From a virus (taxonomy: Duplodnaviria > Heunggongvirae > Uroviricota > Caudoviricetes): 64,000 nt of DNA. The stretch lies in IMG/VR virus record IMGVR_UViG_3300015365_000054; one strand, written 5' to 3'. This document shows, piece by piece, positions 26,310-59,467 of this stretch (the stretch's first letter is position 1; every line of letters begins with the position of its first letter). The notes beneath the pieces are model-generated. The model saw only the letters and a program-made list of their open reading frames with translations. It was not told the origin of the DNA and made no database searches. Made by a program: the position numbers and the translations under genes.

Positions 26310-27704
26310 CTATTCGTTAGACCTATTGCGAATCTCGTCAAACGTGTATTCTTTAACCAGCTTACCATTTTCAAATATTGTTTCCAGTACTGGTTTCCAT
26401 TCAACCCCACGATCCGCCCAATTAGTGGGCTTTTCGATAGATGATTGATATTCACCACCACATTCCCATAGCTCAATTCGTCCTTTCTTGCTGCGCTTTC
26501 CTGAATCTGTAATTGGATCTTTCTGTACATCTTCCCAAACATCATCAATACAAGCGGATGAACATTTCATAGCAAATTTTGCGGTATCTCGGACAACACC
26601 TTGAAGTAGAGCACCACCCATACCAAATGCGATGTTATCTGCACTCCATCCATTTACTTCAAACGTGTGTAGAATTGATTCAATGGTATTTTCGTTGACA
26701 CCATCGCCTTGAATCAGTCTTACATGATTCAGTACTTTGTATCCCTTAGAGTTTTTAATGTAACCAAATTTACTACCCAGAATCTCAATTAGCTTGATAT
26801 TGACTTCTACAGGGTCACCTGAATCAGGACGGATAACAACAACCGCACCGCTGTCGATAACTTCCTGTCTTAGTTCTTCACCCCACAGTTTTTCTGCGGC
26901 ATTAAACACATCATAACTATCAGATACGCATGCTAGGATAGCACCCGGTTTTGCATAATTTTTCAACATGTTTCTATATGCATCAACTTCACGGTCTCTG
27001 CCCCATGAAGTCACAGTGCTGTGCTCCATTGCTGGAATAGAGAAACCAGCAACACCGGCATCGTAATATTCTCTTGCATACAAGAGTCCAGTAATATTAT
27101 CAGTACCCATGAAATTTACAAGGTGAGCAGCACCACCAATACCAACACTTTCCATACTTGACCCACCACGAGCACCAAAATCATGCAATTTGAAATTGAT
27201 ACCAGCAGGATCACCTGTTAGATTTAGGTATGGTAGAATAATGTCTTTAATTGACCTACTTAGTGTAGCGACCGTGGTTGGATACCATACCGCACGTAAT
27301 AATGCAGTCTCTGCTTGAGTGGTTAACCAAAAGCAATTTGTGTCTGTGGCTTCAATCGTAACGAGAACGTTACTGGTTGGCAGAATAGTGCCTTCTGGTA
27401 CAGCCCGAATACGTAATGGCAAATAACCATTGTGTTTATCTAAAATATATTCCCATCCTGCACGATAGAATGGCACACCATGTGCTGTGAGAATCTCGTC
27501 TGCAATGGTAATATCTTCTTTGGTGATTGGCTTGGTTAGATAATCCTTAATGAATATCTGTAGCCCAAAGAATAGAGTCTTTTCCCACGCACCACCACGG
27601 GATTCGATATAAGAATATACACCAGTGGTATTTGGTGGATATTGGTTATACATCGAAGTTTTGTACGAATCTAAATTAAGTATGATATTATTTTCTAGTT
27701 TCAT
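26310..27704 (-). CDS. nadV: nicotinamide phosphoribosyltransferase (Nampt/NadV)
   Basis: 464 aa. N-terminus NIILNLDSYKTSMYNQYPPNTTGVYSYIESRGG is the Nampt signature. Confidence 0.9.
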   Translation of the reverse strand: MKLENNIILNLDSYKTSMYNQYPPNTTGVYSYIESRGGAWEKTLFFGLQIFIKDYLTKPITKEDITIADEILTAHGVPFYRAGWEYILDKHNGYLPLRIRAVPEGTILPTSNVLVTIEATDTNCFWLTTQAETALLRAVWYPTTVATLSRSIKDIILPYLNLTGDPAGINFKLHDFGARGGSSMESVGIGGAAHLVNFMGTDNITGLLYAREYYDAGVAGFSIPAMEHSTVTSWGRDREVDAYRNMLKNYAKPGAILACVSDSYDVFNAAEKLWGEELRQEVIDSGAVVVIRPDSGDPVEVNIKLIEILGSKFGYIKNSKGYKVLNHVRLIQGDGVNENTIESILHTFEVNGWSADNIAFGMGGALLQGVVRDTAKFAMKCSSACIDDVWEDVQKDPITDSGKRSKKGRIELWECGGEYQSSIEKPTNWADRGVEWKPVLETIFENGKLVKEYTFDEIRNRSNE

Positions 27705-29221: not shown

Positions 29222-30250
29222 TTAACCCCCAATAGCCCATGAAATGATATCGTAATGATCTTCAAAACATTCCCAGCGTTTTACTTCTGACAATGGAACC
29301 CACTTTGCTTTTTCAGCATCGTCCATGCCCTTTACTCTAGGAAGTTTACCATCAGGCAATACAATCTTGAATGCATGTGTTACAGTTCTGCCTCTTGATG
29401 AACGTCCAATTGCGTCAAATACTTTGCTATCTACGATTGATCCAGCTAGTACAGGCTCTGGTACTTTGATGCCAGTTTCTTCACGCAGTTCTCGTAACAT
29501 TGCTGCTTCAATGGATTTATCCGTGTCGGCATTGACAAACCCACCGGGTAGTGCCCACAAACCTTTACCGGGTAGTGCTTTTCGCTTGACCATCAGTACA
29601 TGACCAGACTGAATCACTATTGCATCAGTGGTGACAAAGATTGGTGGATGTGGAAGAGGTGCGTATGGTATGTTATATTTTTCAACATGTTGTCTTTCAG
29701 CAATGATCTGGTTAAATGCATCACGCTCATTGACATGAAATCGTTGCAGGAAAGATAGTGTTGATAATGGTACAACACCACGAATGAAATTGAAATTTAG
29801 ATTTTCTCTAAAGAACATTTCGCGGACTGCGGTCGCATCCAATGGTTCAAACAATGGTGTTTCAATGTGAACCCATTGAGGGAACATGTCTAGGTAATCT
29901 GAAGTCCGATCTTTCTTATGCCCAATAATCCCAATGTTGTTATCGATATGGTTGTCGATGCAACCATCGACAATTTCTTGTATCTGAGTTATCCATTTTG
30001 GATTATTATAGATGTAATCCACCGAATGATTGATCTCATAATTCACATCATATTGATTAACAATAGATGAAATCATCTCAGTTCTTTCTTTGAAATTGAA
30101 TGGATTTTTGTATGTTCTTGGTTGATCACAAGAACCGATAATGATAATTAGATTATCTGTTAGTGCTGCTGCACGACGAATTGTTTCTTCATGCCCATTA
30201 TGGCATGGTTGAAAACGTCCAATAAGGACTATATGACTATACACTTTCAT
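29222..30250 (-). CDS. natV: bifunctional NMN adenylyltransferase / Nudix ADP-ribose pyrophosphatase (NadM-Nudix, NatV)
   Basis: N-terminal IGRFQPCHNGHEETI carries the HxGH nucleotidyltransferase motif. C-terminal GGFVNADTDKSIEAAMLRELREETGIKV is a Nudix box. Confidence 0.9.
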   Translation of the reverse strand: MKVYSHIVLIGRFQPCHNGHEETIRRAAALTDNLIIIIGSCDQPRTYKNPFNFKERTEMISSIVNQYDVNYEINHSVDYIYNNPKWITQIQEIVDGCIDNHIDNNIGIIGHKKDRTSDYLDMFPQWVHIETPLFEPLDATAVREMFFRENLNFNFIRGVVPLSTLSFLQRFHVNERDAFNQIIAERQHVEKYNIPYAPLPHPPIFVTTDAIVIQSGHVLMVKRKALPGKGLWALPGGFVNADTDKSIEAAMLRELREETGIKVPEPVLAGSIVDSKVFDAIGRSSRGRTVTHAFKIVLPDGKLPRVKGMDDAEKAKWVPLSEVKRWECFEDHYDIISWAIGG

Positions 30251-31567: not shown

Positions 31568-32416
31568 TTACTTATTTGTAATCCCACTCAAGTTAATGAA
31601 TGGTGTGTTACCACCAGACACTGTTGGGAGTTTTCCATCCCAACGTTCAATCGCAGTCAGTTCAACCAGACGTGGATTCTCACGAAGAGCCTCACCACGG
31701 ATTCGGATTGATTCAGCTTCACCCTTGGCTTGAGCAATTGTCTTCGCAGCTTCGGCTTCTGCCTGTGCTACTTCATTCTGACGTTGCTGTGCCATCTGTG
31801 TTGCCTTAATCTTAGCATTGATTGAGTCTGTTACTGTTTCTGGTAGACGGAAATCACCTGCCCAGTATAGACGCTCAAGTTTAATACCAACAGGGTCAAC
31901 CTGCTCACGAACACGCTTTTCAACATCCGCAATCAACTCAGCCTTACCAGAACCATATACGCTTTCAATTGGCTTGGTGCTTGCAGCAGTAACCAATGCA
32001 TCACGAACCATGTTTCTCAGATAAGTATCTGTAATTTCATCAATACCCTTGCGGTACTTCTGATACAACATACTTACCTTTGCTGGATCAACTGAATAGC
32101 TAATACCCACGTCGCTGTTAACACTCAATCCTTCCACTGTCTGAAACGAAATTGATTCATCAGCAGCATTACCCTCATGTGTATTTTTAGTCCACGTATA
32201 ATTCTGTGTGAATGTTGGGAACAGATAAAGCTCCTCATTCACACCAATCCAGTATCGTCCTGGTGTCAATTCTTGCGTATCAACACCCTTCGCACCACCC
32301 AACAGATACACCTTGACACCTACGTTACCTGCGGGGACTTTTGAACACCCCACAAGACCAATCATCATAATCAACAGAATACTAAAGATCTTATTCACTG
32401 AATTTCTCCCATACAA
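31568..32416 (-). CDS. SPFH/band-7 (stomatin/prohibitin/HflKC-like) lipoprotein
   Basis: Signal peptide with lipobox LVGC. SPFH-like core with an Ala/Glu/Gln-rich coiled coil (QMAQQRQNEVAQAEAEAAKTIAQAKGEAESIRIRGEA). Confidence 0.6.
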   Translation of the reverse strand: MYGRNSVNKIFSILLIMMIGLVGCSKVPAGNVGVKVYLLGGAKGVDTQELTPGRYWIGVNEELYLFPTFTQNYTWTKNTHEGNAADESISFQTVEGLSVNSDVGISYSVDPAKVSMLYQKYRKGIDEITDTYLRNMVRDALVTAASTKPIESVYGSGKAELIADVEKRVREQVDPVGIKLERLYWAGDFRLPETVTDSINAKIKATQMAQQRQNEVAQAEAEAAKTIAQAKGEAESIRIRGEALRENPRLVELTAIERWDGKLPTVSGGNTPFINLSGITNK

Positions 32417-33054: not shown

Positions 33055-33504
33055 TTACGCTGCAATCAAAGTATCAACTTGCTCATACTTGTATGGTTTA
33101 TTCCAACGCCCGATGTTGATTTCAATATAATGAGAGCAATGGAAATAATCTGTTTGTGAATCACTATCATCAAAAAAGTCTGCTCCGCGCATGGCTTGCT
33201 TCACTTCATTCAGAAAGTCCAATGATACACCACTAAACTGATAGTGCTGCCAATAGGTATTGACGCTAATATGATCCTTGGCTGGATGGAATGGTTCATT
33301 TTGATTTTGTGCTTTCTCACTAGCGATCTGATTGAACATACCGATAAAATCGATACAACCAGATTGCACTGTGAGAACCAGTGTTGAATTATTACGCACA
33401 GAAATAGAACCTTTTACCCCATAACGCTTGCAAATCTTTTTGATTGCAGGGGCAAGTTCAGCTTTCTTTTCTTGTGATACGTATGCCATTTTTGTGCTCC
33501 ACAA
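33055..33504 (-). CDS. hypothetical protein (149 aa; alternative start at MAYVSQ)
   Basis: ORF only. Confidence 0.35.
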   Translation of the reverse strand: MWSTKMAYVSQEKKAELAPAIKKICKRYGVKGSISVRNNSTLVLTVQSGCIDFIGMFNQIASEKAQNQNEPFHPAKDHISVNTYWQHYQFSGVSLDFLNEVKQAMRGADFFDDSDSQTDYFHCSHYIEINIGRWNKPYKYEQVDTLIAA

Positions 33505-33576
33505 AAGTGCCTTCGATGGGGTGTACTATACCACCAAATTAATGCCCTGTCAACAGATTTTTGTGTTTCCTAGATC

Positions 33577-33962: not shown

Positions 33963-34202
33963 TTACGCTGTGACATCAAACATTTGGGTATCCAATTTAT
34001 TCAACATCATCAATAATTCTGAAATATCAACTTCGTTTAGTATATAACCACGAACTAGACCAGCATTAATTTTGTCTCTTATGTTGTTTATGATTGGTCT
34101 AAATTCACCGATATAGCCATCATATGGGAAGTTGTAGAATTTATTTTGATTTATCATATTGACCTCTACAGCAAATAACTTGTGTTCCGTATTTCTGCTC
34201 AC
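33963..34202 (-). CDS. hypothetical protein (79 aa)
   Basis: ORF only. Confidence 0.3.
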   Translation of the reverse strand: MSRNTEHKLFAVEVNMINQNKFYNFPYDGYIGEFRPIINNIRDKINAGLVRGYILNEVDISELLMMLNKLDTQMFDVTA

Positions 34203-34638
34203 CAGTTAATGCACATTCAATTCTATCATACAAATACTTATAGTGATTATTATCAACACCTATATATTTTTTTATTACATCCAATGCTTGTTTCTGGAAA
34301 TCTATATTAAAGTCACAATGTTGAGTCAGTAACCAATATCTATCCCAATCATCATCGGTAAAAATATCAAAATCAAATTCCATACCCATGAATGTATTCA
34401 ATCTTTCCTTATCACCAAATATATCATCTATGTGTCTGTGTTTGATATCTGCATATATTAGTGCTCCCTGATCATAATCCCCATCAGCTTCCAAGCGGAT
34501 AAAGTGTGCATAGTCATTACGCTCTGCTTGATCTTGTGACACCAAATCATTCAATATGATTGATTCATGATTGTCTGGATTGATTTTTCTCATTTTTGGC
34601 TTTTTCTGCTGCCACTTGATCCAGTGTGGAATCAACAA
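34141..34638 (-). CDS. hypothetical acidic protein (up to 165 aa), downstream partner of the DUF2384-like ORF
   Basis: Overlaps the upstream ORF by 29-74 nt depending on start. Asp-rich, no RES-domain signature recognised. Confidence 0.3.
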   Translation of the reverse strand: MLIPHWIKWQQKKPKMRKINPDNHESIILNDLVSQDQAERNDYAHFIRLEADGDYDQGALIYADIKHRHIDDIFGDKERLNTFMGMEFDFDIFTDDDWDRYWLLTQHCDFNIDFQKQALDVIKKYIGVDNNHYKYLYDRIECALTGEQKYGTQVICCRGQYDKSK

Positions 34639-34828
34639 TCATATTCACGACGATGGATAATCTACCAAGTTGTAGCATTTGTTTTGGTGTTATTTCACCA
34701 AACATCGGATTGGGTGATTTCCACCAAATATCAACCTTTTCTCTGTCCTTATCGAAAAATCGCATCAGTAAAATATCCAGAACGGATAGTAGAAGTTCTT
34801 CTGTTGTTAATTTTTCTTCATTATTCAT
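34565..34828 (-). CDS. possible DUF2384 (ParS/MbcA/Xre-like antitoxin C-terminal domain) protein
   Basis: WWKSPNPMFGEITPKQMLQLGRLSIVVNMI fits the recalled DUF2384 core pattern W..PN..LGG..P..LL..G...V...L..I. 87 aa. Identified from memory, not from a search. Confidence 0.35.
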   Translation of the reverse strand: MNNEEKLTTEELLLSVLDILLMRFFDKDREKVDIWWKSPNPMFGEITPKQMLQLGRLSIVVNMIVDSTLDQVAAEKAKNEKNQSRQS

Positions 34829-34839
34829 GATATTATTTC

Positions 34840-35172
34840 CTAAAGGGGGAGTGTCACCTTAGACGAAGTTGTCTTTTTTGGCTTTGTGGTTTTCTTCTTT
34901 GCTGTCTTTTTCTTGACAACAGGTGTATCTGCCACATAGTCAGGTGTATCTACCGACTTGATAGATTCTGTTTTTGCTCCATGAGCATAAAATGCCTTTG
35001 TATCATCTTGGATGTAATATGGTTTCACTTCTTCATCCATAATGGATACATTAATATTTTCCTTTGCCTTGTTTTCTGCTATATCATTTGCATTGCCAAT
35101 GAATTTGGCAACTTTATACATGATGTAGAATAATCCAAGTATCGCAACTAAAATTAATATGCTATTAAACAT
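34840..35172 (-). CDS. membrane-anchored protein with a Lys-rich C-terminal tail (110 aa)
   Basis: N-terminal TM (ILILVAILGLFYIMY) and a KKKTAKKKTTKPKKTT tail. Confidence 0.4.
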   Translation of the reverse strand: MFNSILILVAILGLFYIMYKVAKFIGNANDIAENKAKENINVSIMDEEVKPYYIQDDTKAFYAHGAKTESIKSVDTPDYVADTPVVKKKTAKKKTTKPKKTTSSKVTLPL

Positions 35173-35837
35173 TTTTGATTCCCCTGTGTTTTCTCGTTGT
35201 AAATATCTATATATCTCTTTAATTCATCAATATGGTTACTGGCTTTTTCCGTAATGACCTGACAATCAATGGTTTCATCTACGGCAATCATGATAACTAT
35301 ATCATCAATATATATGCCTGTCAATTCATGGAACATTTGTGAATATGCAGCACATTGCATGAAATAATTACCAACCCAATCATTCCTTTTGATCTTTTTT
35401 GAGGTTTTGAAGTCAATTATGGACAACACCCCATTATATTCCGCAATGCAGTCAACTGTGCCAGCCAAGCATAAATTATCAGAGAACATCCTAGTTTCTA
35501 GGCAATGGATATTATCTATTTTTTTTAGTTGTGGTTTTAGTTGGACAAATGATGGTTTCACATCAGCTGCAATTGGATAAGAAGACATATCATTATTATT
35601 CAGATAATGTTCTATGGTGGAATGCACCTTTGTGCCTCTTGATGTTGCATATCTGGATATTCTATCTGCCTCTTCCTCACCAACACGTTTTCTCCATGCA
35701 GTAATACTTTTCTTACTATATTCGGATAGGACAGTTGTCACTGATGGATATCGTTTTCCATTAGCCACATAATATCTTCCGGTGCTGGTGTTTTCCTGAA
35801 TTATTTCAGGAAAACTATATTTTTTATGGGTAAACAT
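35154..35837 (-). CDS. PD-(D/E)xK nuclease of the RecB/Cas4/lambda-exonuclease type
   Basis: Motifs GTVD...SIIDFKTSKK (D...D-x-K) and QCAAYSQM (the QxxxY motif of the RecB nuclease family). Start taken at MFTHKKY. Confidence 0.55.
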   Translation of the reverse strand: MFTHKKYSFPEIIQENTSTGRYYVANGKRYPSVTTVLSEYSKKSITAWRKRVGEEEADRISRYATSRGTKVHSTIEHYLNNNDMSSYPIAADVKPSFVQLKPQLKKIDNIHCLETRMFSDNLCLAGTVDCIAEYNGVLSIIDFKTSKKIKRNDWVGNYFMQCAAYSQMFHELTGIYIDDIVIMIAVDETIDCQVITEKASNHIDELKRYIDIYNEKTQGNQKCLIAY

Positions 35838-36536: not shown

Positions 36537-37292
36537 TTAATTATCTATATGATCTCTCTCATATTTGTCTACGGCAACTAGGAAATCTTTAACCAAGCTG
36601 CTACGAACAATATCATCCACAGTAAATTCCACACTAGAGAATGATTGCATTGTTTTTGCAATATCATGGAACTTACGCAATCCGGATTTATCACTCTGTT
36701 TTCTATATAGGTCACTTTGTCTGTAATCACCACAAAATATGATCTTTGATCTATATCCAACACGAGTCATTATAGTGGACATTTCTTCCCATGTTAAATT
36801 TTGACATTCATCTACTATGATAACAGAATCATCAAAACTCATACCACGAATAAAACTTGTCGAAATGAATTCAATTTTACCTGCTTCTTTTAAGCACTCA
36901 TATGCATTGTGTCTATTGAAGAGTGTGTGGTATATCTGCACATATGGCTGTTCATATAAGCTCATTTTTTCTTCTAGTGAACCTGGTGTAAAACCAATGT
37001 CTCTGCCCTGTACTGCGGATCTTACTATAACGACCCTTTTGAATGATGTCGTTTTATCATATACTTCTTTTATAGCTTTATAACATGCAATAAATGATTT
37101 CCCTGTCCCAGCACTTCCGGTTAACATGACAAAATAATCCCCACGATCATAATTATCAAAGAAGGTACGTTGATTTGCGGTTAATGGTTCAAATGTTCTT
37201 AGTTCGCTTGGCTTTATTCTTGGTGGGGGTGGGGTTTTGGTTAAATCTACATCAGATTCTACATGATCAATGTGCTTTCTTTTATTGGACAT
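36537..37292 (-). CDS. phoH: PhoH-like ATPase
   Basis: Walker A GSAGTGKS and Walker B IIVDECQN. 251 aa. Confidence 0.9.
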   Translation of the reverse strand: MSNKRKHIDHVESDVDLTKTPPPPRIKPSELRTFEPLTANQRTFFDNYDRGDYFVMLTGSAGTGKSFIACYKAIKEVYDKTTSFKRVVIVRSAVQGRDIGFTPGSLEEKMSLYEQPYVQIYHTLFNRHNAYECLKEAGKIEFISTSFIRGMSFDDSVIIVDECQNLTWEEMSTIMTRVGYRSKIIFCGDYRQSDLYRKQSDKSGLRKFHDIAKTMQSFSSVEFTVDDIVRSSLVKDFLVAVDKYERDHIDN

Positions 37293-50254: not shown

Positions 50255-50342
50255 TGGCGGGTAGTGAAGGATTCGAACCCTCGTGGCTGTTACACCCATC
50301 TGATTTCAAATCAGCGACAATTGGCCTCTCTGTCAACTACCC
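50255..50342 (-). tRNA. tRNA-Ser (anticodon TGA), class II
   Basis: Acceptor GGGTAGT/ACTACCC, discriminator G, encoded CCA. Anticodon loop TTTGAAA, long variable arm, T-loop TTCGAAT. Confidence 0.75.
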
Positions 50343-50389
50343 ATAATCTTAGTGTATATTATTTATGATCAAATGTACAGCATTATTTT

Positions 50390-50479
50390 CGGAAGATGTA
50401 GGATTTGAACCCACAAACCATTTTTCAATGATCAAACAACTTTCGAAGTTGCGCGGCTCACCAATACCGTAGATCTTCC
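50390..50479 (-). tRNA. tRNA-Ser (anticodon CGA), class II
   Basis: Acceptor GGAAGAT/ATCTTCC, discriminator G. Anticodon loop TTCGAAA, long variable arm, T-loop TTCAAAT. CCA not encoded. Confidence 0.65.
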
Positions 50480-50484
50480 ATATA

Positions 50485-50931
50485 TTATTGCATAAATTCC
50501 GGAACTTGTCTATTTTTCCAGTGAGCAATATGCCCCTTATGTAATTTATAGTATTTTCGGTATGATTCAATAACATTATTAGTTTTACAATCATCTGGCA
50601 TTGCTTGTGCAAATGTAGTCAATTCCCCATCAGGAATGTTGTCTGGTGGTGATGTCAGTTGTTCGATTATAGCCTGACACTTATGCACTTTACCATATCT
50701 ATGCGTATATTCCTTACACAATGCAATCCCCAACTCAACCAACCAAGAATAATTTGATTTTGTTGATCTCGCCCATATAGTGCATGGGTGATTCCGATGT
50801 GTAGGTTTATACGGACCGCCACAAATCGTACTCAACATTTGTGCTGTCTCCAATGGCATCTTAACCACATGCTTATCCATGTGCATCTGTGCTGATATTA
50901 CAGGATCTTTATCTAATACAAATATGTTCAT
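50485..50931 (-). CDS. possible pyrimidine-dimer DNA glycosylase (DenV-like)
   Basis: 148 aa. N-terminus MNIFVLDKDPVISAQMHMDKHVVKMPLETAQML follows the pattern of the T4 endonuclease V N-terminus ([24 protein letters not shown]). Resemblance is weak and from memory. Confidence 0.3.
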   Translation of the reverse strand: MNIFVLDKDPVISAQMHMDKHVVKMPLETAQMLSTICGGPYKPTHRNHPCTIWARSTKSNYSWLVELGIALCKEYTHRYGKVHKCQAIIEQLTSPPDNIPDGELTTFAQAMPDDCKTNNVIESYRKYYKLHKGHIAHWKNRQVPEFMQ

Positions 50932-50945
50932 AATTTAGTGTGTAA

Positions 50946-51020
50946 TGGTGCGGATAGTGAGAATCGAACTCACATCTAAACGTTGGCAACGTCCAATAAT
51001 AGCCTTTATACCATATCCGC
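50946..51020 (-). tRNA. tRNA-Gly (anticodon GCC)
   Basis: Acceptor GCGGATA/TATCCGC, discriminator A, CCA encoded. Anticodon loop TTGCCAA, T-arm GTGAG-TTCGATT-CTCAC. Confidence 0.65.
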
Positions 51021-51033
51021 ATAATAATGTAAA

Positions 51034-51122
51034 TGGCAGAGGATAGTGGAATCGAACCACAGCCAGTTTCCCAACTATCTTGATTTCCAATCAAGCGCAG
51101 ATGCCAAACTGCAATATCCTCT
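51034..51122 (-). tRNA. tRNA-Ser (anticodon GGA), class II
   Basis: Acceptor AGAGGAT/ATCCTCT, discriminator G, CCA encoded. Anticodon arm CTTGA-TTGGAAA-TCAAG, long variable arm. Confidence 0.65.
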
Positions 51123-51124
51123 AC

Positions 51125-51199
51125 TGGTGCCCAAATAAGGAATCGAACCTTAATCTCATTCTTACCAAGAATGTATACTTACCATTGTAATATATGGGC
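51125..51199 (-). tRNA. tRNA-Thr (anticodon GGT)
   Basis: Anticodon arm CATTC-TTGGTAA-GAATG, T-loop TTCGATT, CCA encoded. One acceptor mismatch. Confidence 0.6.
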
Positions 51200-51204
51200 A
51201 ATGA

Positions 51205-51627
51205 TTACCTAATACCGATTAAAACAGCGTGATCATAAATGAGTTCACAGTCTGGCATGTCAACAACATATACACATGGTATCATTTTGGTCGAATCATT
51301 TCTTCTACCTTCAAGATTAAAATAATTACCTTCCCACATAACATTTCTATAACAATGTATTGTTGCTGTGTCATTATGACTGAAGTTGATCGTGCATCCC
51401 CTAATCAGTCTATTACCAATATAAGATGGTATTTCTATGGAGTTGTGGATATGATATATCTTACCATCAACTAATTGATTATAGGTGATATCATTCAACA
51501 AATCATTTTCATTTAGTTCTCTGGTATATTGATTCGTTTTGGGTAAAATCCGTAAATTTTTAGCTGCCACAGGAAATGCAACCACCGAAGCAATACCCAA
51601 TCCAAGCAAAAAATGTCGTCTATTCAT
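51205..51627 (-). CDS. secreted protein with a twin-arginine (Tat) signal peptide (140 aa)
   Basis: N-terminus MNRRHFLLGLGIASVVAFPVAAK matches the Tat consensus (S/T)RRxFLK followed by an AxA-like cleavage site. Confidence 0.45.
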   Translation of the reverse strand: MNRRHFLLGLGIASVVAFPVAAKNLRILPKTNQYTRELNENDLLNDITYNQLVDGKIYHIHNSIEIPSYIGNRLIRGCTINFSHNDTATIHCYRNVMWEGNYFNLEGRRNDSTKMIPCVYVVDMPDCELIYDHAVLIGIR

Positions 51628-51644
51628 AACAAATTCCTCGTATT

Positions 51645-51717
51645 TGGTAGCGGGCTAGGGTAACGATCCCTATTCGACTTAGGCTTATGAGACCTAGCGG
51701 TGCCATCACAACCCGCA
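51645..51717 (-). tRNA. tRNA-Met/fMet/Ile2 (anticodon CAT) with an unpaired 1-72 position and an atypical T-loop ATCGTTA
   Basis: Acceptor TGCGGGT/GCCCGCT with T-T at 1-72. Anticodon arm TAGGT-CTCATAA-GCCTA, T-arm TAGGG-ATCGTTA-CCCTA, CCA encoded. The 1-72 mismatch suggests an initiator. Confidence 0.5.
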
Positions 51718-51721
51718 AAAC

Positions 51722-51796
51722 TGGTGCGCAAAGAAGGACTTGAACCTTCATCCTCGGTTTCGTAAACCGAAATTCTCTCCATTGAACTATTCGCGC
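51722..51796 (-). tRNA. tRNA-Arg (anticodon ACG)
   Basis: Acceptor GCGCGAA/TTTGCGC, anticodon arm TCGGT-TTACGAA-ACCGA, T-loop TTCAAGT, CCA encoded. Confidence 0.75.
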
Positions 51797-51801
51797 AAAA
51801 T

Positions 51802-51876
51802 TGGTTGTGGCGGTCAGACTCGAACTGACACATAATCCCCTATGATGGGATCTTTCTACCATTGAACTACACCACA
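51802..51876 (-). tRNA. tRNA-Met or Ile2 (anticodon CAT)
   Basis: Acceptor TGTGGTG/CGCCACA, D-arm AGTTCAATGGTAGAA, anticodon arm ATCCC-ATCATAG-GGGAT, T-loop TTCGAGT, CCA encoded. Confidence 0.7.
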
Positions 51877-52093
51877 ATATTATTTATTTAAACAATACAT
51901 ATCCGGCATCAGATGGGAAGGAACTTCCCCAATCCATAATTTTCTTAATATCGTCCGCTTCACTTGCACCATCTACTTGCCCAACATAGTACTTGTGACT
52001 AAAATCATCACAAATTACCTTAACAATGCCGACATTACCATGTCCCGCACAAAACCACTTTACACCAACAAATGATTGCATATATACCTCTTG

Positions 52094-52167
52094 TGGGTTT
52101 ACTGAGATTCGAACTCAGATCATACTGGGTAAGAGCCAGATATAATAGCCATTATACGATAAACCCA
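52094..52167 (-). tRNA. tRNA-Lys (anticodon CTT); the anticodon assignment is tentative
   Basis: Acceptor GGGTTTA/TAAACCC, T-arm CTGAG-TTCGAAT-CTCAG. Best anticodon parse is a 4-bp stem with loop CTCTTAC. Confidence 0.5.
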
Positions 52168-52181
52168 AATTAATTGCAAAC

Positions 52182-52400
52182 TTAAACTCCAAAATGGTCA
52201 ATAATTCTCGCAACTGCTTCATATGCCACACCATTTTCGTCTTTCCTAATTTGTGCAATGCATTCATTCACAATCAATGCGGTGAACTTTTGTAAATCTT
52301 CTTCTTTATAGAACTTGACAGAGGTTGACATACCTTCCCACCATCCAGGGAAGAATTCTCCACCAGCCTGTTCAGCCAATACTTTAATTCTTTCATTCAT
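52182..52400 (-). CDS. hypothetical protein (72 aa)
   Basis: ORF only. Confidence 0.3.
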   Translation of the reverse strand: MNERIKVLAEQAGGEFFPGWWEGMSTSVKFYKEEDLQKFTALIVNECIAQIRKDENGVAYEAVARIIDHFGV

Positions 52401-52581
52401 ACATCACCATCAACTTCTAAAATCAACTCGAAACCAAACGCCAGTCGCATCACACCTTTCTTCAGCATCAGCAAACTGATCTGCTTCGGGGACATTATCA
52501 AACTCCGCCACATCCTTTTCCCAAGTTTCATAACCATCGTTAAAGCATCTGACCACAACCCACGTCATTTCAATCTCCTGA

Positions 52582-52827
52582 TTAAACACAACCTTCTAAT
52601 AACTGACTGACCCAGATCGATTTAGTATTATCGACCAACGTCCCGTCACTGGTTGCAACTTTAACCTTAACAACACGATCTGGTTTACCAAATCTCTTAG
52701 AAACATCTTCTAGTGATAGAACTGTAGAGACGTAGAAGAAAGCATCCCCATACCAACCTTTGCGTAAACTGCTAGTGAATATATCACCAACTTTCACGTT
52801 TAAATAATTTGGGTTATTTGCTGGCAT
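52582..52827 (-). CDS. hypothetical protein (81 aa)
   Basis: ORF only. Confidence 0.3.
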   Translation of the reverse strand: MPANNPNYLNVKVGDIFTSSLRKGWYGDAFFYVSTVLSLEDVSKRFGKPDRVVKVKVATSDGTLVDNTKSIWVSQLLEGCV

Positions 52828-52908
52828 TTCTCTCTACCTCAATTCACTATAGAATCATTATACACGAAAAAAGTAAAAAAGCAATAGAAAAATTAGACAA
52901 ATTTAAAA

Positions 52909-52984
52909 TGGCGACCCCGCAAGGATTCGAACCTCGATTTTACGGCTTTGGAGACCGATGTAATAGCCATTATACCACGGAGTC
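52909..52984 (-). tRNA. tRNA-Trp (anticodon CCA)
   Basis: Acceptor GACTCCG/CGGGGTC (one G-T), discriminator G, CCA encoded. Anticodon loop CTCCAAA on a 4-bp stem, T-loop TTCGAAT. Confidence 0.6.
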
Positions 52985-53075
52985 ATAGTGCTAGGACTCG
53001 AACCTAGTATCGTAATGCGATTTCACGTAGGGCAACGTAACCTTCCTACGCCTTACCATACAGCTGGAGGCACAT
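52985..53075 (-). other. tRNA-like element: canonical T-arm (CTAGG-TTCGAGT-CCTAG) without a resolvable acceptor stem
   Basis: Perfect T-arm at 52991..53007 abutting tRNA-Trp. No complementary 5' acceptor strand within 120 nt. Possible pseudo-tRNA or a fold I could not resolve. Confidence 0.3.
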
Positions 53076-53108
53076 TTGATAGCAAAATCCTGCCACTGTA
53101 TATATTTA

Positions 53109-53183
53109 TGGTGTGACATGCAGGATTCGAACCTACATCAAGAGTTTAGGAAACTCCTATTCTATCCATTGAACTAATGTCAC
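53109..53183 (-). tRNA. tRNA-Arg (anticodon CCT)
   Basis: Acceptor GTGACAT/ATGTCAC, anticodon arm GGAGT-TTCCTAA-ACTCT, T-loop TTCGAAT, CCA encoded. Confidence 0.65.
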
Positions 53184-53186
53184 AAT

Positions 53187-53606
53187 TTATCGCCCACATT
53201 TGGTGGCTATTTCCACTAGATTGGGTGTTTCCAACACTGTTCTACTTGCTAAGAAACGGGTATCTGAAGAGTCACCATCTATCCTAACCCAAATGTATTC
53301 TGATGGTTTGGGTTCGATGTATTTAACCACGCCACGGCTGATTCTCTCGAATCCATGAAAAATACCTACTCTACTACCGATATTAACAGTGTCAATCTCT
53401 AAAATGGTTTTTAATTTGGCTGTCAGGATATTTTTCTGTATTGGGGATGATGTAGCATCATCAACACATACACCAATGATCATTTTTGTATATTCCTTTA
53501 GATCAAAGTTATCACACTGAGAACACGAATCAAAATCATCTTCTTGCCACCCAGCCTGTGCTGCTATTTTTTCCCATCTATTCATAATATTCATAACCTT
53601 ACTCAT
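53187..53606 (-). CDS. hypothetical protein (139 aa)
   Basis: ORF only. Cys pair CSQCDN near the N-terminus. Confidence 0.35.
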   Translation of the reverse strand: MSKVMNIMNRWEKIAAQAGWQEDDFDSCSQCDNFDLKEYTKMIIGVCVDDATSSPIQKNILTAKLKTILEIDTVNIGSRVGIFHGFERISRGVVKYIEPKPSEYIWVRIDGDSSDTRFLASRTVLETPNLVEIATKCGR

Positions 53607-53626
53607 AATCTACCTCTATATTAAAT

Positions 53627-53710
53627 TGGTGCGAGTGGTCGGACTCGAACCGACATGATTTTCATCGACGGATTTTAAGTCCGTTGCGTCTACCATTTCA
53701 CCACACTCGC
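53627..53710 (-). tRNA. tRNA-Leu (anticodon TAA), class II
   Basis: Acceptor GCGAGTG/CACTCGC, anticodon arm ACGGA-CTTAAAA-TCCGT, long variable arm, T-loop TTCGAGT, CCA encoded. Confidence 0.75.
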
Positions 53711-53711
53711 A

Positions 53712-53930
53712 TTATGCATTAATTTTCTTTACAAATTTATCATATAGGATTTTAAGTTTAATTTTAATTGTCTGATCCCTATCAACCAAGTACGTGATGG
53801 AATTACCTGTTTTTTCTATCACGTAATAATTTTTAACTATGTTACGAAATGTTTCATCTTCCACAAAATACATGTATAACAAATCCCAGCCTTCCGGTGT
53901 GATATTTTCAGCTTGTAATTCTTGTATCAT
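53712..53930 (-). CDS. hypothetical protein (72 aa)
   Basis: ORF only. Confidence 0.3.
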   Translation of the reverse strand: MIQELQAENITPEGWDLLYMYFVEDETFRNIVKNYYVIEKTGNSITYLVDRDQTIKIKLKILYDKFVKKINA

Positions 53931-53939
53931 AAATCCCCC

Positions 53940-54272
53940 TTAGAACATTGTTCTTATTTCTATTCCATATTTGGATGGTCTGATATAAGTGTTTCCTAAC
54001 CAGACACCAAGTGATGCTCCAACAGCATCAGCCAACAAATCGCCCTTTGAAAATATGTTGTTATGTTGTCTTGAATCAATAATTTCTTTGATAAGACCAG
54101 ATGCCATAGCAACACCAAAAGCAGCATATTTGTTTTCTATCAGTGTCCCTGATGCAGCACCTAATAATAGGGATACACCAGCATGATAGTTTTTGTCAAC
54201 ACCATATGTATCCGTCTCTGCTGCAATGGCTGTTGATGATAAAAGTAACAATAAAATATATAATGTTTTCAT
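53940..54272 (-). CDS. small secreted or membrane protein with an N-terminal signal peptide and a Gly/Ala-rich hydrophobic core (110 aa)
   Basis: MKTLYILLLLLSSTAIAAE signal peptide. Gly-zipper-like segments GAASGTL and GVAMASG. Confidence 0.35.
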   Translation of the reverse strand: MKTLYILLLLLSSTAIAAETDTYGVDKNYHAGVSLLLGAASGTLIENKYAAFGVAMASGLIKEIIDSRQHNNIFSKGDLLADAVGASLGVWLGNTYIRPSKYGIEIRTMF

Positions 54273-54478
54273 ACAGTGATGTTATTGACGAATGAATCCA
54301 ATACTTCCATTTTAAATCGGTTACATCCAAAACTATCTTTCTGATTGTCCATTTCATATCTATCCGAAGTAGAATATGCCTCTCTTTCATCAGTATGAAT
54401 GGAGACAACATCTATTGTATCATCTATTATATCTCGACGTATTACAACATATAACATTTTAACATTTATGTCCATCAA
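54269..54478 (-). CDS. hypothetical protein (69 aa)
   Basis: ORF only. Confidence 0.25.
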   Translation of the reverse strand: MMDINVKMLYVVIRRDIIDDTIDVVSIHTDEREAYSTSDRYEMDNQKDSFGCNRFKMEVLDSFVNNITV

Positions 54479-54499
54479 TAAACCCTCATGATATTAAAT

Positions 54500-54577
54500 T
54501 GGTCGGGTATGCAGGATTTGAACCTGCAACCTTCTGCTCCCAAAGCAGACGCACTACCAAGTTGTGCTAATACCCGA
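54500..54577 (-). tRNA. tRNA-Pro (anticodon TGG), copy 1
   Basis: Acceptor (T)CGGGTA/TACCCGA, anticodon arm TCTGC-TTTGGGA-GCAGA, T-loop TTCAAAT, CCA encoded. Confidence 0.7.
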
Positions 54578-54586
54578 ATTTCAAAA

Positions 54587-54662
54587 TGGTGCAAGGTCCA
54601 AGATTTGAACTTGATTCTTACCGTCTTCAGCGGTACGCTATGACCACACCAGCTCACCTTGC
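54587..54662 (-). tRNA. tRNA-Phe (anticodon GAA)
   Basis: Acceptor GCAAGGT/ACCTTGC, anticodon arm TACCG-CTGAAGA-CGGTA, T-loop TTCAAAT, CCA encoded. Confidence 0.8.
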
Positions 54663-55297
54663 AATATTCTTTTGTATTCTGCTTTCTCAACAATTACTAT
54701 TTTTTTATCCGGATGCTGTTCCATTACAGCCTCCATTTTTTGCTTATCATTTCCCCACCAGTATCCTTTAATCTCAAGATAAACATTAAATCCAGAGAGA
54801 TAGAAATCTGGAGAGTAAGATCTAATTTTACCATTTAATACATACTTTATCAAATCTGTATTGGTTTTTGGTTTGCTCCAGTCAATTCCCATTTCGTTTA
54901 ACTTTAATGCTATATTGTATTCCCATGTACCTTGTACCTTAATACCATTAACATCAAACCATTTACATTTTCCGCCACGATTTTTTATGGATTGTTCTTC
55001 GCTTAATTTCAAGCGAGCTGATTCCCCCATACGATTGATTCGATATGTGCCGTTTTTAACTTTAGTTTGTAGTGTATCTGAAACTGCTTTGGCGTGTCTT
55101 GCTACAGCATCACTAGTTTCTTTTGTTAATCCTTTATTCCACGCAGGAACCCCAACTGGGTGACCAACTTTACCTGGTCTATTTGCACGTTCTTCTTGCA
55201 TTCGTAAACACTTTGATTGATGATCTTTATGTCTAGTTGATACAATAGATTTATTACAATGAATACAATTTCTATAACTCTTAATATACATGGGCAT
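54638..55297 (-). CDS. putative endonuclease: N-terminal Zn-finger plus C-terminal PD-(D/E)xK-like domain (possible free-standing homing endonuclease)
   Basis: CIHCNKS...H..H..C finger and a C-terminal YSPDFYL...NVYLEIKGYW (D...E-x-K) motif. The 3' end overlaps tRNA-Phe by about 25 nt, so the true stop may differ. Confidence 0.3.
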   Translation of the reverse strand: MPMYIKSYRNCIHCNKSIVSTRHKDHQSKCLRMQEERANRPGKVGHPVGVPAWNKGLTKETSDAVARHAKAVSDTLQTKVKNGTYRINRMGESARLKLSEEQSIKNRGGKCKWFDVNGIKVQGTWEYNIALKLNEMGIDWSKPKTNTDLIKYVLNGKIRSYSPDFYLSGFNVYLEIKGYWWGNDKQKMEAVMEQHPDKKIVIVEKAEYKRILQGELVWS

Positions 55298-55368
55298 ATC
55301 TCCTCTACACCAATGTATTTATTATTCAGTGCTAATCCATCTCAGCTAAGTTGGCAAATAAACGACTT

Positions 55369-55447
55369 TGGGGTGACTGGTGGGACTTGAACCCACAAAA
55401 ATCCAAGGTCACAGCTTGGGATGTCTACCAATTCCATCACAGTCACC
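55369..55447 (-). tRNA. tRNA-His (anticodon GTG) with an encoded G-1
   Basis: 8-bp acceptor G-1 plus GTGACTG paired with CAGTCAC plus C73. Anticodon arm CCAAG-CTGTGAC-CTTGG, T-loop TTCAAGT, CCA encoded. Confidence 0.8.
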
Positions 55448-55480
55448 CCAAAGTCGTCTAATTATAAGATAACACACCAG

Positions 55481-55570
55481 ATGCTGATCAGGCATTTACA
55501 GGAATCGAACCTGCCACCCTGTGGTACAAGGCTGTATCCAACGACCCATTGCGCATGGGCTAGTGTGTTA
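55481..55570 (-). other. tRNA-like element: T-arm (GCAGG-TTCGATT-CCTGT) lacking a matching acceptor stem, flanked by the inverted repeat AACACAC/GTGTGTT
   Basis: T-arm at 55498..55514. No 5' strand complementary to AAATGCC was found. Possible degenerate tRNA. Confidence 0.25.
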
Positions 55571-55807
55571 TATTCGAATTTGTTTACCGCTACTCGTTAC
55601 CACGAAATTGAATAGCTGAATCAACGTATTGATCTGCTGCACACATCGGATTCACACATAACGGCAGTGGTGTGGTTATGTGCTTTTGGGTATCTGTGCA
55701 CACACGTAAACAAAATAGGTTAAATATCTAAATATACTAAATAAAGGTGTCTGTCACGATATTAGCAGTATCCACAGACTCTAGTAACTTAATAGGAGTA
55801 TACCAGC

Positions 55808-56617
55808 ATGTCTATTTATTCAACAATATATTGTTCCTGCATTATCTGTAAGGAAGTAAGACCATCCAAAGGCATTCGTTCTCACTACGCTGCTTCACAT
55901 ACCGAAGAAGGTAGGAAGCGAATAAAGGAAAATGGTATTCTATATGGTAAACTTGGCAGAGATACCTTTAAAAAGAAATGCACATCTAAAAAAGAATATG
56001 CAATTCACCAATATAATTTATCACCTAATACATGTAAACATTGTAATAGTATATTAGATTTTGATAAAAAAAGCAATAAATTTTGTTCACAATCATGTTC
56101 TGTTTCCTATTCTAACAAAAGAAGACATAAAATATTATCTCAAACTGCACTTGATAATATCCGTAACGCTAACTTAGTTCGTTCTGTTGTTGCTGGTGAT
56201 TATTGTAGAATTTATCGCTGTAGGAAATGTCAAAAATATCACCCATCAACCGAACAAAAACATTTATGTTGTAAAGATTCATCTACCGCATATAGACCAT
56301 TATGTAAATTTTCCTTTAATCTCGGTGATTATCCAGAAGAGTTCGACTTGAGTTTAATAGAAAAGCATGGAATGTTTTCCCCAACAAAAAATCCAACTGG
56401 AGTATCAAGGGATCATATGGTTTCTATTGATTATGCGTTTAAGCATAAAATAGATCCATCAATAATCAGGCATCCAGCAAATTGTAGGATTATTCTACAA
56501 AAAGATAATTCTCAAAAACACACTAAGAGCGAAATATCTTTAGATGAATTACTATATAGAATTATCGATTGGGATATCAAATATCAATCTAGGAATGGTG
56601 GGTCCGCTGAGAGTTGA
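55808..56617 (+). CDS. HNH-type endonuclease-like protein with N-terminal Cys-rich zinc-finger repeats (possible homing endonuclease)
   Basis: C-terminal SRDHMVSIDYAF...HPANCRIILQKDNSQKH is HNH-like (DH..N..H). Multiple CxxC pairs upstream. Only plus-strand gene inside the minus-strand tRNA array. Its 3' end overlaps tRNA 56596..56672 on the other strand. Confidence 0.45.
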   Translation: MSIYSTIYCSCIICKEVRPSKGIRSHYAASHTEEGRKRIKENGILYGKLGRDTFKKKCTSKKEYAIHQYNLSPNTCKHCNSILDFDKKSNKFCSQSCSVSYSNKRRHKILSQTALDNIRNANLVRSVVAGDYCRIYRCRKCQKYHPSTEQKHLCCKDSSTAYRPLCKFSFNLGDYPEEFDLSLIEKHGMFSPTKNPTGVSRDHMVSIDYAFKHKIDPSIIRHPANCRIILQKDNSQKHTKSEISLDELLYRIIDWDIKYQSRNGGSAES

Positions 56618-56672
56618 ACTCAGAGTTTCATCGATTATGAGTCGAGTGTTTTGACCATTAAACTACAGACCC
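56596..56672 (-). tRNA. tRNA-Met (anticodon CAT), G1-C72 paired, so elongator Met or Ile2
   Basis: Acceptor GGGTCTG/CGGACCC, anticodon loop CTCATAA on a TCGA/TCGA stem, T-arm CTGAG-TTCAACT-CTCAG, CCA encoded. Confidence 0.65.
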
Positions 56673-56679
56673 CAAACAT

Positions 56680-56955
56680 TTACAATTTCTCAGTAGGATT
56701 CCATATAGTAACAATAAATCTGTTTTGTCCTTTTCCAATAGAATGCTGTTCATATCCATCAGGAATAGAAACATACCAATTGTTTTTTCTAGCTTCACTT
56801 ATGGATTTAAACTTACCAATCCTAGCAAGAAGATGTGCCATTGTTTTATCAGATTCTTCCAATGGAATGATTATATCATCTCCACCAAATCCAAGCAAAT
56901 CATTATCAACATCAGATTGATAATTTTTTCCAACAATGACAAAATTATTTTTCAT
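56680..56955 (-). CDS. hypothetical protein (91 aa)
   Basis: ORF only. Confidence 0.3.
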   Translation of the reverse strand: MKNNFVIVGKNYQSDVDNDLLGFGGDDIIIPLEESDKTMAHLLARIGKFKSISEARKNNWYVSIPDGYEQHSIGKGQNRFIVTIWNPTEKL

Positions 56956-56971
56956 ATAATCTCCAAAACAA

Positions 56972-57046
56972 TTGGCAGGGGATGGTGGTAACGCTCCACC
57001 TCACTCGGTTTCAAAGACCGATATCTGCTCTTATCGATTTATCCCC
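56972..57046 (-). tRNA. tRNA-Gln (anticodon TTG) with atypical T-loop AGCGTTA
   Basis: Perfect acceptor AGGGGAT/ATCCCCT, discriminator G, CCA encoded. Anticodon arm TCGGT-CTTTGAA-ACCGA, T-arm GGTGG-AGCGTTA-CCACC. Confidence 0.55.
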
Positions 57047-57052
57047 TATAAA

Positions 57053-57127
57053 CTGGAGTTGTGGACTGGATTTGAACCAGCGTAATAGAATTTTGCAGAC
57101 TCTAACCTAACCACTCGGTCACCACAA
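57053..57127 (-). tRNA. tRNA-Cys (anticodon GCA)
   Basis: Acceptor GTTGTGG/CCACAAC, discriminator T, CCA encoded. Anticodon arm AGAGT-CTGCAAA-ATTCT, T-loop TTCAAAT. Confidence 0.65.
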
Positions 57128-57146
57128 CATAAACCTGCGAAATCAA

Positions 57147-57320
57147 TTTGGTTTATACCAAACACATTCCTTATCATGTTCTAATTCTTTTCCCACATAG
57201 TGTGGAGCACCACAACAATTACAGTAACTATCAATACCAGTTCGTCGTATTAGTTCCTGTATATCTCTCTGGTGATAAAATTCCCTCAACCATTCGGAAA
57301 AATTAAATTCTTTATCCATA
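57147..57320 (-). CDS. small Cys/His-rich zinc-finger-like protein (57 aa, below the ORF-track cutoff)
   Basis: Minus-strand ORF MDKEFNFSEWLREFYHQRDIQELIRRTGIDSYCNCCGAPHYVGKELEHDKECVWYKPN between two tRNAs. Confidence 0.25.
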
Positions 57321-57345
57321 AAAATTACCCCAACAATAAAATAAA

Positions 57346-57435
57346 TTGGCGGAAGGTACAGGATTCGAACCTGTGTGCCCTTTTCAGAACCATCTGTTTA
57401 GCAAACAGTGTCAATTAGCCACTCTGACAACCTCC
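57346..57435 (-). tRNA. tRNA-Ser (anticodon GCT), class II
   Basis: Acceptor GGGAGGT/ACCTTCC, discriminator G, CCA encoded. Anticodon loop TTGCTAA on stem CTGT/ACAG, long variable arm, T-arm ACAGG-TTCGAAT-CCTGT. Confidence 0.6.
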
Positions 57436-57747
57436 CATAAATTTTATCTTAAAAACTGTTCCGGTTGGTGTGGTCATTGGTTGAACATCAACTAGACTTG
57501 CAGCGATTATAGATGGATACAAACCTCGTACCTTTCTTGTGTAGATTCTAAAAGCACGTATCATATACAATTTCTTATGTCTACCGGATAACTTATTATA
57601 TCGATGTGATGTACCAGCCTTTTCATGATTGGTAATAGCATCTGTTAACTGTTTTTCCAAGTATTCTAATGTATGCTTCATATATAACCTGTATATAATT
57701 GGTGCCCTCACGAGGTAACGCTCCCCGAACTGATGATTACAAGTCAA
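57415..57747 (-). CDS. hypothetical basic protein (110 aa; may start at the internal MKHTLEY)
   Basis: ORF whose last 20 nt overlap the tRNA-Ser(GCT) 5' end. Uncertain. Confidence 0.25.
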   Translation of the reverse strand: MTCNHQFGERYLVRAPIIYRLYMKHTLEYLEKQLTDAITNHEKAGTSHRYNKLSGRHKKLYMIRAFRIYTRKVRGLYPSIIAASLVDVQPMTTPTGTVFKIKFMGGCQSG

Positions 57748-57781
57748 CTGTTATACTACTTAACTATAAGGGCAAATCATT

Positions 57782-57857
57782 TGGTGCACAGTGTAGGACT
57801 CGAACCTACATCTTCCACTTTGTAAGAATGGTGCTTAACCCCTCAGACCAACTGTGC
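57782..57857 (-). tRNA. tRNA-Val (anticodon TAC)
   Basis: Acceptor GCACAGT/ACTGTGC, anticodon arm CCATT-CTTACAA-AGTGG, T-arm GTAGG-TTCGAGT-CCTAC, CCA encoded. Confidence 0.7.
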
Positions 57858-57864
57858 GTGAATT

Positions 57865-57946
57865 TGGTGGAAGCCGAGGGAGTTGAACCCTTCTAGTCAG
57901 CAATCTTGCAAGGATTACCCGTAACCCGTTACTGCCCCCATGAAAT
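57865..57946 (-). other. tRNA-like element with an Ala-type anticodon arm (TAATC-CTTGCAA-GATTG, anticodon TGC) but no resolvable acceptor stem
   Basis: T-loop TTCAACT with only a 4-bp stem. The 3' end GGCTTCC-A-CCA has no complementary 5' strand before tRNA-Tyr begins. Possible pseudo-tRNA-Ala. Confidence 0.3.
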
Positions 57947-58031
57947 TGGTGGAATGTACTGGGATCGAACCAGTCGTGCCATTAGGCGGCTGATTTACAG
58001 TCAGCTGCATCACCATTGATGCTTCCACTCC
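57947..58031 (-). tRNA. tRNA-Tyr (anticodon GTA), class II
   Basis: Acceptor GGAGTGG/ACATTCC (6 of 7 pairs), D-arm GCAT-CAATGGTG-ATGC, anticodon arm GCTGA-CTGTAAA-TCAGC, variable hairpin GCC-TAAT-GGC, T-arm ACTGG-TTCGATC-CCAGT, CCA encoded. Confidence 0.7.
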
Positions 58032-58042
58032 GAAATAAAATT

Positions 58043-58118
58043 TGGCGGTCTTAGGGGGTAACGATCCCCACTCTTCGGCAGTGACAGTACCGTGTGCGTC
58101 CATAAACACTTTAAGACC
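58043..58118 (-). tRNA. tRNA-Asp (anticodon GTC) with atypical T-loop ATCGTTA
   Basis: Perfect acceptor GGTCTTA/TAAGACC, discriminator G, CCA encoded. D-stem GTGT/GCAC, anticodon arm CGGTA-CTGTCAC-TGCCG, T-arm (T)GGGG-ATCGTTA-CCCC(C). 76 nt. Confidence 0.55.
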
Positions 58119-58262
58119 TATGTTCTTTTCTTTCCAGCATATGTACTGGTTTGTGAGTGACAATTTGGACAGACCAATCTGATGTTTTCTGGTCTATTAT
58201 CATTATTGATGCCATTCACATGATCGACTTGAAGCGATAGGTAATTGCCATTCTTTATAGCG

Positions 58263-58280
58263 TACCATATAGAAACACAC
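58263..58280. repeat. 18-nt repeat copy 1 (TACCATATAGAAACACAC)
   Basis: Matches 58480..58497 with one mismatch and is the inverse complement of 58341..58357. Confidence 0.75.
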
Positions 58281-58340
58281 TGCGTTGACAAATCTTGTCA
58301 ATAACACATAATCTTATTTCGACACTGCTTATTCCTACAT

Positions 58341-58357
58341 TGTGTTTCTATATGGTA
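58341..58357. repeat. inverted copy of the 18-nt repeat (TGTGTTTCTATATGGTA), itself embedded in a CCTACAT/ATGTAGG hairpin
   Basis: Reverse complement of copy 1. Confidence 0.75.
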
Positions 58358-58479
58358 TGTAGGGCGGGGGGTGGTTTTAATTCCCGTTTCAAACGATAGT
58401 CCGGACTATCTACGCGGTTATCAGTGAACTTTGCTTCCGCAACCTAACTAAGTCTTTGTCGTTTCGGTTACTTCCTACA

Positions 58480-59377: not shown

Positions 59378-59383
59378 CTACAG

Positions 59384-59459: not shown

Positions 59460-59467
59460 CTACATGC

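Follow-up and report, generated by a model that had tools for sequence, protein, structure and literature searches.

The biochemistry of RES-domain toxins, among them MbcT, NatT, ParT and the toxin of the P. putida RES system, is well understood, while their natural role is unsettled. Their antitoxins (MbcA, Xre, NatR, VPA0769 and ParS) are encoded directly upstream of the RES toxin; MbcA (Rv1990c), P. putida Xre, NatR and VPA0769 are two-domain proteins of 111–149 residues (solved chains), ParS was solved as a 72-residue fragment, and Xre autoregulates its operon by means of its HTH domain. [quoted passage not shown] A function in phage defence has been suggested for RES-domain toxins (PMC6436930), and no demonstration of RES-Xre systems defending against phage was found in the searched literature.

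Phages themselves encode relatives of these antitoxins. Ibhubesi gp52 is a short (61 aa), single-domain homologue of the toxin-binding part of MbcA/Xre/ParS, which is encoded by a 55-kb temperate actinophage; the surrounding genes are small and of early type, and none of those called next to it is a RES gene. The decoy idea considered below is not new, as Freire et al. 2019 proposed it for this mycobacteriophage protein (PMC6436930). Complete RES-Xre modules also occur in phages, e.g. gp26/gp25 of Stenotrophomonas phage S1 (PMC9503650): gp26 (141 aa, two domains) is followed after 3 nt by gp25, which has a RES domain (PF08808, E=1.3e-12) and carries the annotation NAD+ phosphorylase, and this complete toxin-antitoxin (TA) module is carried by a temperate phage beside integrase and repressor genes. 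In T4-like phages, counter-defence by orphan antitoxins is established, with DarG-like enzymes acting against DarT1 (PMC11825919). The strategy proposed here for the 87-aa protein ORF87 is the same as that of the DarG-like enzymes and of Dmd (which acts against RnlA/LsoA), i.e. a free-standing antitoxin or mimic of a lytic T4-like phage; those proteins differ from ORF87 in fold and in target toxin, and their activity was shown experimentally, whereas that of ORF87 is deduced. Compared to these systems, ORF87 resembles Ibhubesi gp52 in being a phage-encoded single-domain toxin-binding homologue, lacks the N-terminal domain and the toxin partner of MbcA, Xre, NatR, VPA0769 and ParS, and is an orphan, unlike the carried TA system of phage S1.

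The window analysed here (the whole stretch of DNA, 64 kb) derives from a large T4-like phage found in environmental metagenomes; it encodes baseplate wedge proteins, a gp5-like hub-lysozyme, a gp32-like SSB, PhoH and a PD-(D/E)XK exonuclease, with a GC content of 35–39%. Its closest relatives in culture, Methylophilales phage Melnitz and Pelagibacter phage HTVC008M, are only ~39% identical in gp6. ORF87 (Table 1), whose neighbouring genes are all on the same strand, starts with an ATG codon, and its AGGA motif overlaps the stop codon of the upstream gene ORF110. It is a real, expressed-looking small gene of a ~200-kb T4-like myovirus and not a chance ORF, since gene calling yields an identical protein on 24 contigs from metagenomes, the longest of 199 kb, phmmer run exhaustively against 1.84 billion representative proteins recovered ORF87 and 108 homologues at E<=1e-3 (best 3.9e-8), and a leave-one-out family profile gave it 80 bits while none of 2000 shuffles exceeded 12 bits, this last value being supporting and not independent evidence because the profile members were chosen by their similarity to ORF87. 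In a comparison of ten loci, the nucleotide sequence of ORF87, and likewise that of ORF150, did not vary wherever the gene was present. A word-indexed protein search returned ORF87 itself as the sole match, and a megablast search with 3.5 kb around ORF87 against 50,697 phage genomes returned nothing, the region thus having no annotated close relative. Additionally, a phmmer search of ORF87 against the PDB returned an IL-12 receptor fusion as its only match, which was rejected as spurious.

Table 1. Features of the ORF87 region and of the NAD+ salvage genes, numbered along the window
Feature	Position	Strand	Description
NAMPT	26310-27704	-	same strand as ORF87
NMNAT-Nudix fusion	29222-30250	-	same strand as ORF87
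Second sigma-70-like match	33525-33553	-	TTGACA-17-TATAGT with TG, 11 of 12; 5' of a 149-aa ORF (33055-33504)
ORF150	34141..34593	-	acidic all-alpha protein; overlaps ORF87 by 29 nt (34565-34593)
ORF87	34565..34828	-	87-aa single-domain protein, DUF2384 superfamily, without HTH domain
C-terminal extension of ORF87	34568..34615	-	16-residue helical extension VAAEKAKNEKNQSRQS, beyond the end of about half of the aligned relatives
Core conserved domain of ORF87	34616..34771	-	residues ~20-71; all nearly invariant family positions
AGGA Shine-Dalgarno/ribosome-binding motif	34838..34841	-	9 nt 5' of the ORF87 ATG; read from sequence
ORF110	34840..35172	-	upstream neighbour of ORF87; N-terminal hydrophobic helix, Lys/Thr-rich C-terminal tail
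Sigma-70-like promoter match	35296..35324	-	TTGACA-17-TATAGT with TG, 11 of 12; ~125 nt 5' of ORF110

A first-pass annotation had proposed a DUF2384 domain on the basis of a string in the 87-aa product, WWKSPNPMFGEITPKQMLQLGRLSIVVNMI, and had named an hmmscan against PF09722 and a comparison of an AlphaFold model as means of checking it. The ORF and the string (beginning at residue 35) were both present as described, and the assignment was correct at the superfamily level. The hmmscan gave a divided answer: PF09722 (Xre_MbcA_ParS_C) did match residues 25–63 of ORF87 (profile positions 6–44 of 51) with E=0.001, but at 19.4 bits the direct score remained under the gathering cut-off of 24.5 bits, which Ibhubesi gp52 passes (26.6 bits). 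The same stretch was matched by the NCBIfam model Xre_ParS_antitoxin (NF049845) with E=0.008 and 16.3 bits versus a cut-off of 90. Taken alone, these direct matches suggest the assignment without carrying it further.

The placement of ORF87 as a divergent member of the DUF2384 superfamily is supported through intermediates, profiles and fold, and not through a curated Pfam threshold. ORF87 and its homologues share the signature F-F-x-G-D-x-x-K-x-x-L-W-x-x-x-P-N-P-x-L-G-x-x-S-P-x-x-M-x-x-x-G-R, and PF09722 matched 59 of the 109 aligned family sequences at E<=1e-3 (best 1.4e-12). When the family profile was run against the PDB, the top four matches were MbcA (E=2.3e-4), VPA0769, P. putida Xre and ParS; against a collection of 5.8 billion proteins, the matches were named DUF2384 or antitoxin Xre/MbcA/ParS-like by their sources. 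Furthermore, hhalign aligned the family to Ibhubesi gp52 with a probability of 96% (E=2e-9). The AlphaFold model, built on the family alignment (pLDDT 93.1; helices 9–24, 29–37, 48–53 and 57–86), displayed the DUF2384 fold and not an unrelated one: all eight Foldseek matches in the PDB were DUF2384 antitoxins, with weak E-values (0.9–4) that are to be expected as the domain is helical and comprises only 60 residues. The DUF2384-like domain and its flanking helices fill the whole chain, and no HTH family was matched in Pfam or NCBIfam. That the gene is real and the DUF2384 fold present can be stated with high confidence.

Within the core domain, every one of the nearly invariant positions is kept in ORF87 (F25, D28, K31, W35, N40, P41, G44, P48, M51, G55 and R56). 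The protein departs from its family elsewhere: residue 59 is I where 95 of the 109 aligned sequences have K or R, residue 71 is Q where 66 of the 109 have N, and its C-terminal tail is 16 residues long, while about half of the aligned relatives have a tail of four residues or fewer (many of the shortest ending in ...N-x-P). The last codons of this tail fall within the ORF150 overlap, and the tail, together with an extra N-terminal helix, distinguishes ORF87 from Ibhubesi gp52. These departures may affect binding; as MbcA plugs its toxin with the C-terminus, the unusual tail could reflect another target or another way of binding.

Only one relative of the ORF87 family was detected among the 50,697 deposited phage genomes, namely gp26 of phage S1. 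The C-terminal domain of gp26 shares 35% identity with ORF87; its identity to P0026, a short-form relative, is 56% (E=1e-15). In two of the three bacterial long-form relatives that were looked up (L026 and L043), the next protein resembles parts of gp25 and looks decayed or remodelled. From the gp26/gp25 pair, the identity between P0026 and gp26, and the gp25-like genes following the L026 and L043 relatives, we infer by sequence comparison that, in cases with a partner, the ORF87 subfamily is associated with one of RES type. The product of L026:2883-3527 retains ~95 residues resembling the gp25-type N-terminal part (42% identity), after which comes a membrane-like tail rich in Gly and Ala, and the 152-aa product of L043:2927-3385 has only patchy similarity to gp25. 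The 52-aa ORF after the third long-form relative (L044:2921-3079) has no detectable similarity to gp25.

The majority of the relatives are short, 73 of the 108 being 100 aa or shorter (clusters at 50% identity). A degenerate DNA pattern located 14 viral loci, nine of which were accepted as family members from their translations. In the approximately 12 phage-like contexts of short relatives that were examined (L011, L022, L024 and nine IMG/VR contigs), the neighbours were varied, encompassing UDG, RusA, metallophosphatases, a zinc ribbon, DUF5662 and portal and scaffold genes, and those neighbours that were compared with Pfam included no RES protein. These numerous single-domain relatives from contigs of uncultured viruses fall outside the current phage protein families: PHROGs gave ORF87 only a marginal N-terminal match and contain no family for its relatives, the ORF87 family is without an anti-defence annotation, and PADLOC returned no match for ORF87, ORF150 or ORF64. 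The short domain is tandemly duplicated within 135 aa in P0022, and it is fused to an N-terminal CxxC zinc-finger-like segment in L030 (oriented 4936-5247) and L037 (oriented 1403-1765).

ORF87 is a phage-borne, free-standing toxin-binding domain of RES antitoxins with no toxin gene adjacent, i.e. a phage-encoded homologue of the toxin-neutralising part of an antitoxin without a toxin in cis. By analogy with the systems described above, it may tentatively be regarded as an orphan antitoxin mimic directed against a host RES-type toxin, thereby blocking abortive infection, a reading that we favour while placing it somewhat below even chances; the anti-defence role of gp52 likewise has the standing of a proposal (PMC6436930). 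Produced in the course of infection, the protein would bind a host RES-type toxin. Candidate targets are ADP-ribosyltransferases such as ParT, and NAD+ phosphorylases/NADases such as MbcT, NatT and the P. putida RES toxin. By filling the NAD+ cleft of its target in the manner of the MbcA and Xre C-terminal domains, it would keep the toxin silent once the labile antitoxin of the host decays, such that abortive infection would be averted.

The NAD+ reconstitution genes mentioned in the first-pass annotation are indeed present as NAMPT and an NMNAT-Nudix fusion (Table 1). The route from nicotinamide to NAD+ that they encode has been named NARP2 (PMC13464706), and the two genes constitute a NARP2-type NAD+ resynthesis pair. 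They are located 4–8 kb from ORF87 with about 12 genes between, which amounts to a loose co-location. The action proposed for ORF87 would lie upstream of, and be complementary to, this NAD+ resynthesis. A Band_7/SPFH protein (31568-32416) and PhoH (36537-37292) are encoded in the same leftward gene block as the NAMPT and NMNAT-Nudix genes.

Extending the reading from ORF87 to its relatives, the short HTH-less DUF2384 proteins might constitute a widespread, unannotated phage family that neutralises RES-type NAD+-targeting toxins, in which ORF87 would represent a T4-like phage that uses the protein alongside genes for NAD+ resynthesis; this broader proposition is speculative and, as we weigh it, rather unlikely. 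If true, it would provide the first natural evidence that RES-Xre/MbcTA-type modules act in abortive infection. Retention of just the toxin-binding half of an antitoxin in a lytic phage is the kind of footprint to be expected if RES toxins restrict phages, and ORF87 is a candidate 87-aa inhibitor and a ready reagent for testing such restriction.

A doubtful but serious alternative is that the domain was exapted, ORF87 being a helical binding module with a non-RES target, such as an Alt/Mod-type ADP-ribosyltransferase encoded by the phage, a different defence enzyme that has an ART fold or consumes NAD+, or some unrelated protein of the host. The very different phage modules in which the short forms reside (UDG, RusA, metallophosphatases, zinc ribbons and portal-scaffold) are consistent with this, as are the deviations of ORF87 at the K/R59 and N71 positions and at its C-terminal end, the region that plugs MbcT in MbcA, and the fact that its family has neither a PHROG nor an anti-defence annotation. 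Against it, all of the solved structures with a matching fold are antitoxins in complex with their RES toxins, genes of RES type or derived from RES come next after the closest two-domain relatives, and all of the nearly invariant core residues are retained.

It is improbable that ORF87 acts as antitoxin to a split or trans-acting phage toxin of the RES/ART type whose gene lies in another part of the ~200-kb genome, beyond the 64-kb window, and which would be used in taking over the host or in excluding superinfecting phages. The genes of a TA pair are usually neighbours. With phmmer and a few RES queries (a search of low sensitivity), no RES-like ORF was detected next to ORF87 or anywhere else in the window, and the relatives of ORF87 in other viral contigs are likewise without an adjacent toxin. 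Nevertheless, the 64 kb examined represent part of a contig family that reaches 199 kb, complete RES-Xre modules do occur in phages (S1 gp26/gp25), and ART enzymes are common in T4-like phages (PMC9503650).

The gene that overlaps ORF87, ORF150, offers a further possibility, namely that the two constitute a new two-gene TA or regulator-effector pair in which ORF150 is a non-RES effector curbed by the DUF2384 domain. The first-pass annotation had described an acidic, overlapping ORF of 165 aa without a RES motif and had concluded that a complete TA pair was probably not present. The overlap and the acidity (pI 4.7; 30 D+E versus 18 K+R) are as it stated, while the length requires correction: the longest reading frame does give 165 aa from a TTG codon (34141..34638), but the likely start is the ATG at 34593, yielding 150 aa, as supported by gene callers and by the N-termini of homologues (MRINE, MRLHE). 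Its view of the partner also stands, as ORF150 has no match to RES (PF08808) in Pfam, none to any toxin family and nothing significant in BLASTP against phage S1 gp25, and its model (pLDDT 89.8) is entirely helical with a TPR-like fold. ORF150 lacks the RES/ART alpha-beta fold with the R-E-S catalytic signature and is not a RES toxin.

In favour of an ORF87-ORF150 pair, the antitoxin-first order and the 29-nt overlap suggest translational coupling, and the segment from ORF87 to the start of ORF150 is kept in the mosaic contig L007. Additionally, the ORF150 family (homologues P0002-P0019) has invariant polar residues, i.e. Q91-H92-x-D94 (QHCD), D123-R124-I125 (DRI) and Q133...T137-Q138 (GTQ), which suggest a functional site, active or binding. 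Against this, the 17 homologues of ORF150 (49–64% identity) lie in other phage-like contigs, with no DUF2384-like gene upstream in the two context families examined, the genes downstream of ORF87 relatives are unrelated, and the all-alpha, TPR-like ORF150 has neither a toxin-family nor a PADLOC match. Given these homologues and the varied neighbours of the ORF87 relatives, the 29-nt overlap looks like ordinary phage packing, and ORF150 is an accessory gene with no connection to ORF87 beyond the overlap, and not a conserved partner. The conclusion that the two are not a TA pair is therefore supported, ORF150 being all-helical and not RES, ORF87 lacking an HTH domain and the ORF150 homologues occurring elsewhere without a DUF2384 neighbour; a novel effector pair is accordingly quite improbable. 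A PF09722 match on ORF150 (E=0.19, residues 91–109) was dismissed as noise, since ORF150 has an unrelated fold and none of its homologues shows the match. The sole annotated link of the ORF150 family is a distant relative that matches DUF6624, and some of its members are fused to Lys-rich KWV-type modules.

The weakest explanation, that the resemblance to DUF2384 arose by chance or that ORF87 is a non-functional remnant, could draw on the direct Pfam and NCBIfam scores below their curated cut-offs, the individually weak Foldseek E-values and the identity of all 24 ORF87 copies (as a result of which selection is not measurable), but it is highly implausible in view of homologues down to E=3.9e-8, a profile score far above that of the shuffles and an intact gene that has a ribosome-binding site and keeps every near-invariant residue.

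A weak PADLOC match of ORF110 to RmrT (E=0.0015) is probably compositional. Contig L007 has only 616 bp in common with the window (L007:4781-5396 versus ~34430-35050 of the window, 99.4% identity), a segment which extends from the middle of ORF110 through ORF87 and into ORF150, where L007 ends. The upstream genes of L007 (a Rv2179c-like exonuclease and a different PD-(D/E)XK protein) differ from those of the window, suggesting a recombination breakpoint inside ORF110. Promoter and terminator scans of the window gave match totals not above the shuffled background; judged on its match to the consensus only, the sigma-70-like sequence upstream of ORF110 may start an ORF110-ORF87-ORF150 unit read by the host RNA polymerase. 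Elsewhere in the window, 27 tRNA genes, which cover most amino acids, form a dense array (50255-60045, minus strand) with small ORFs interspersed.
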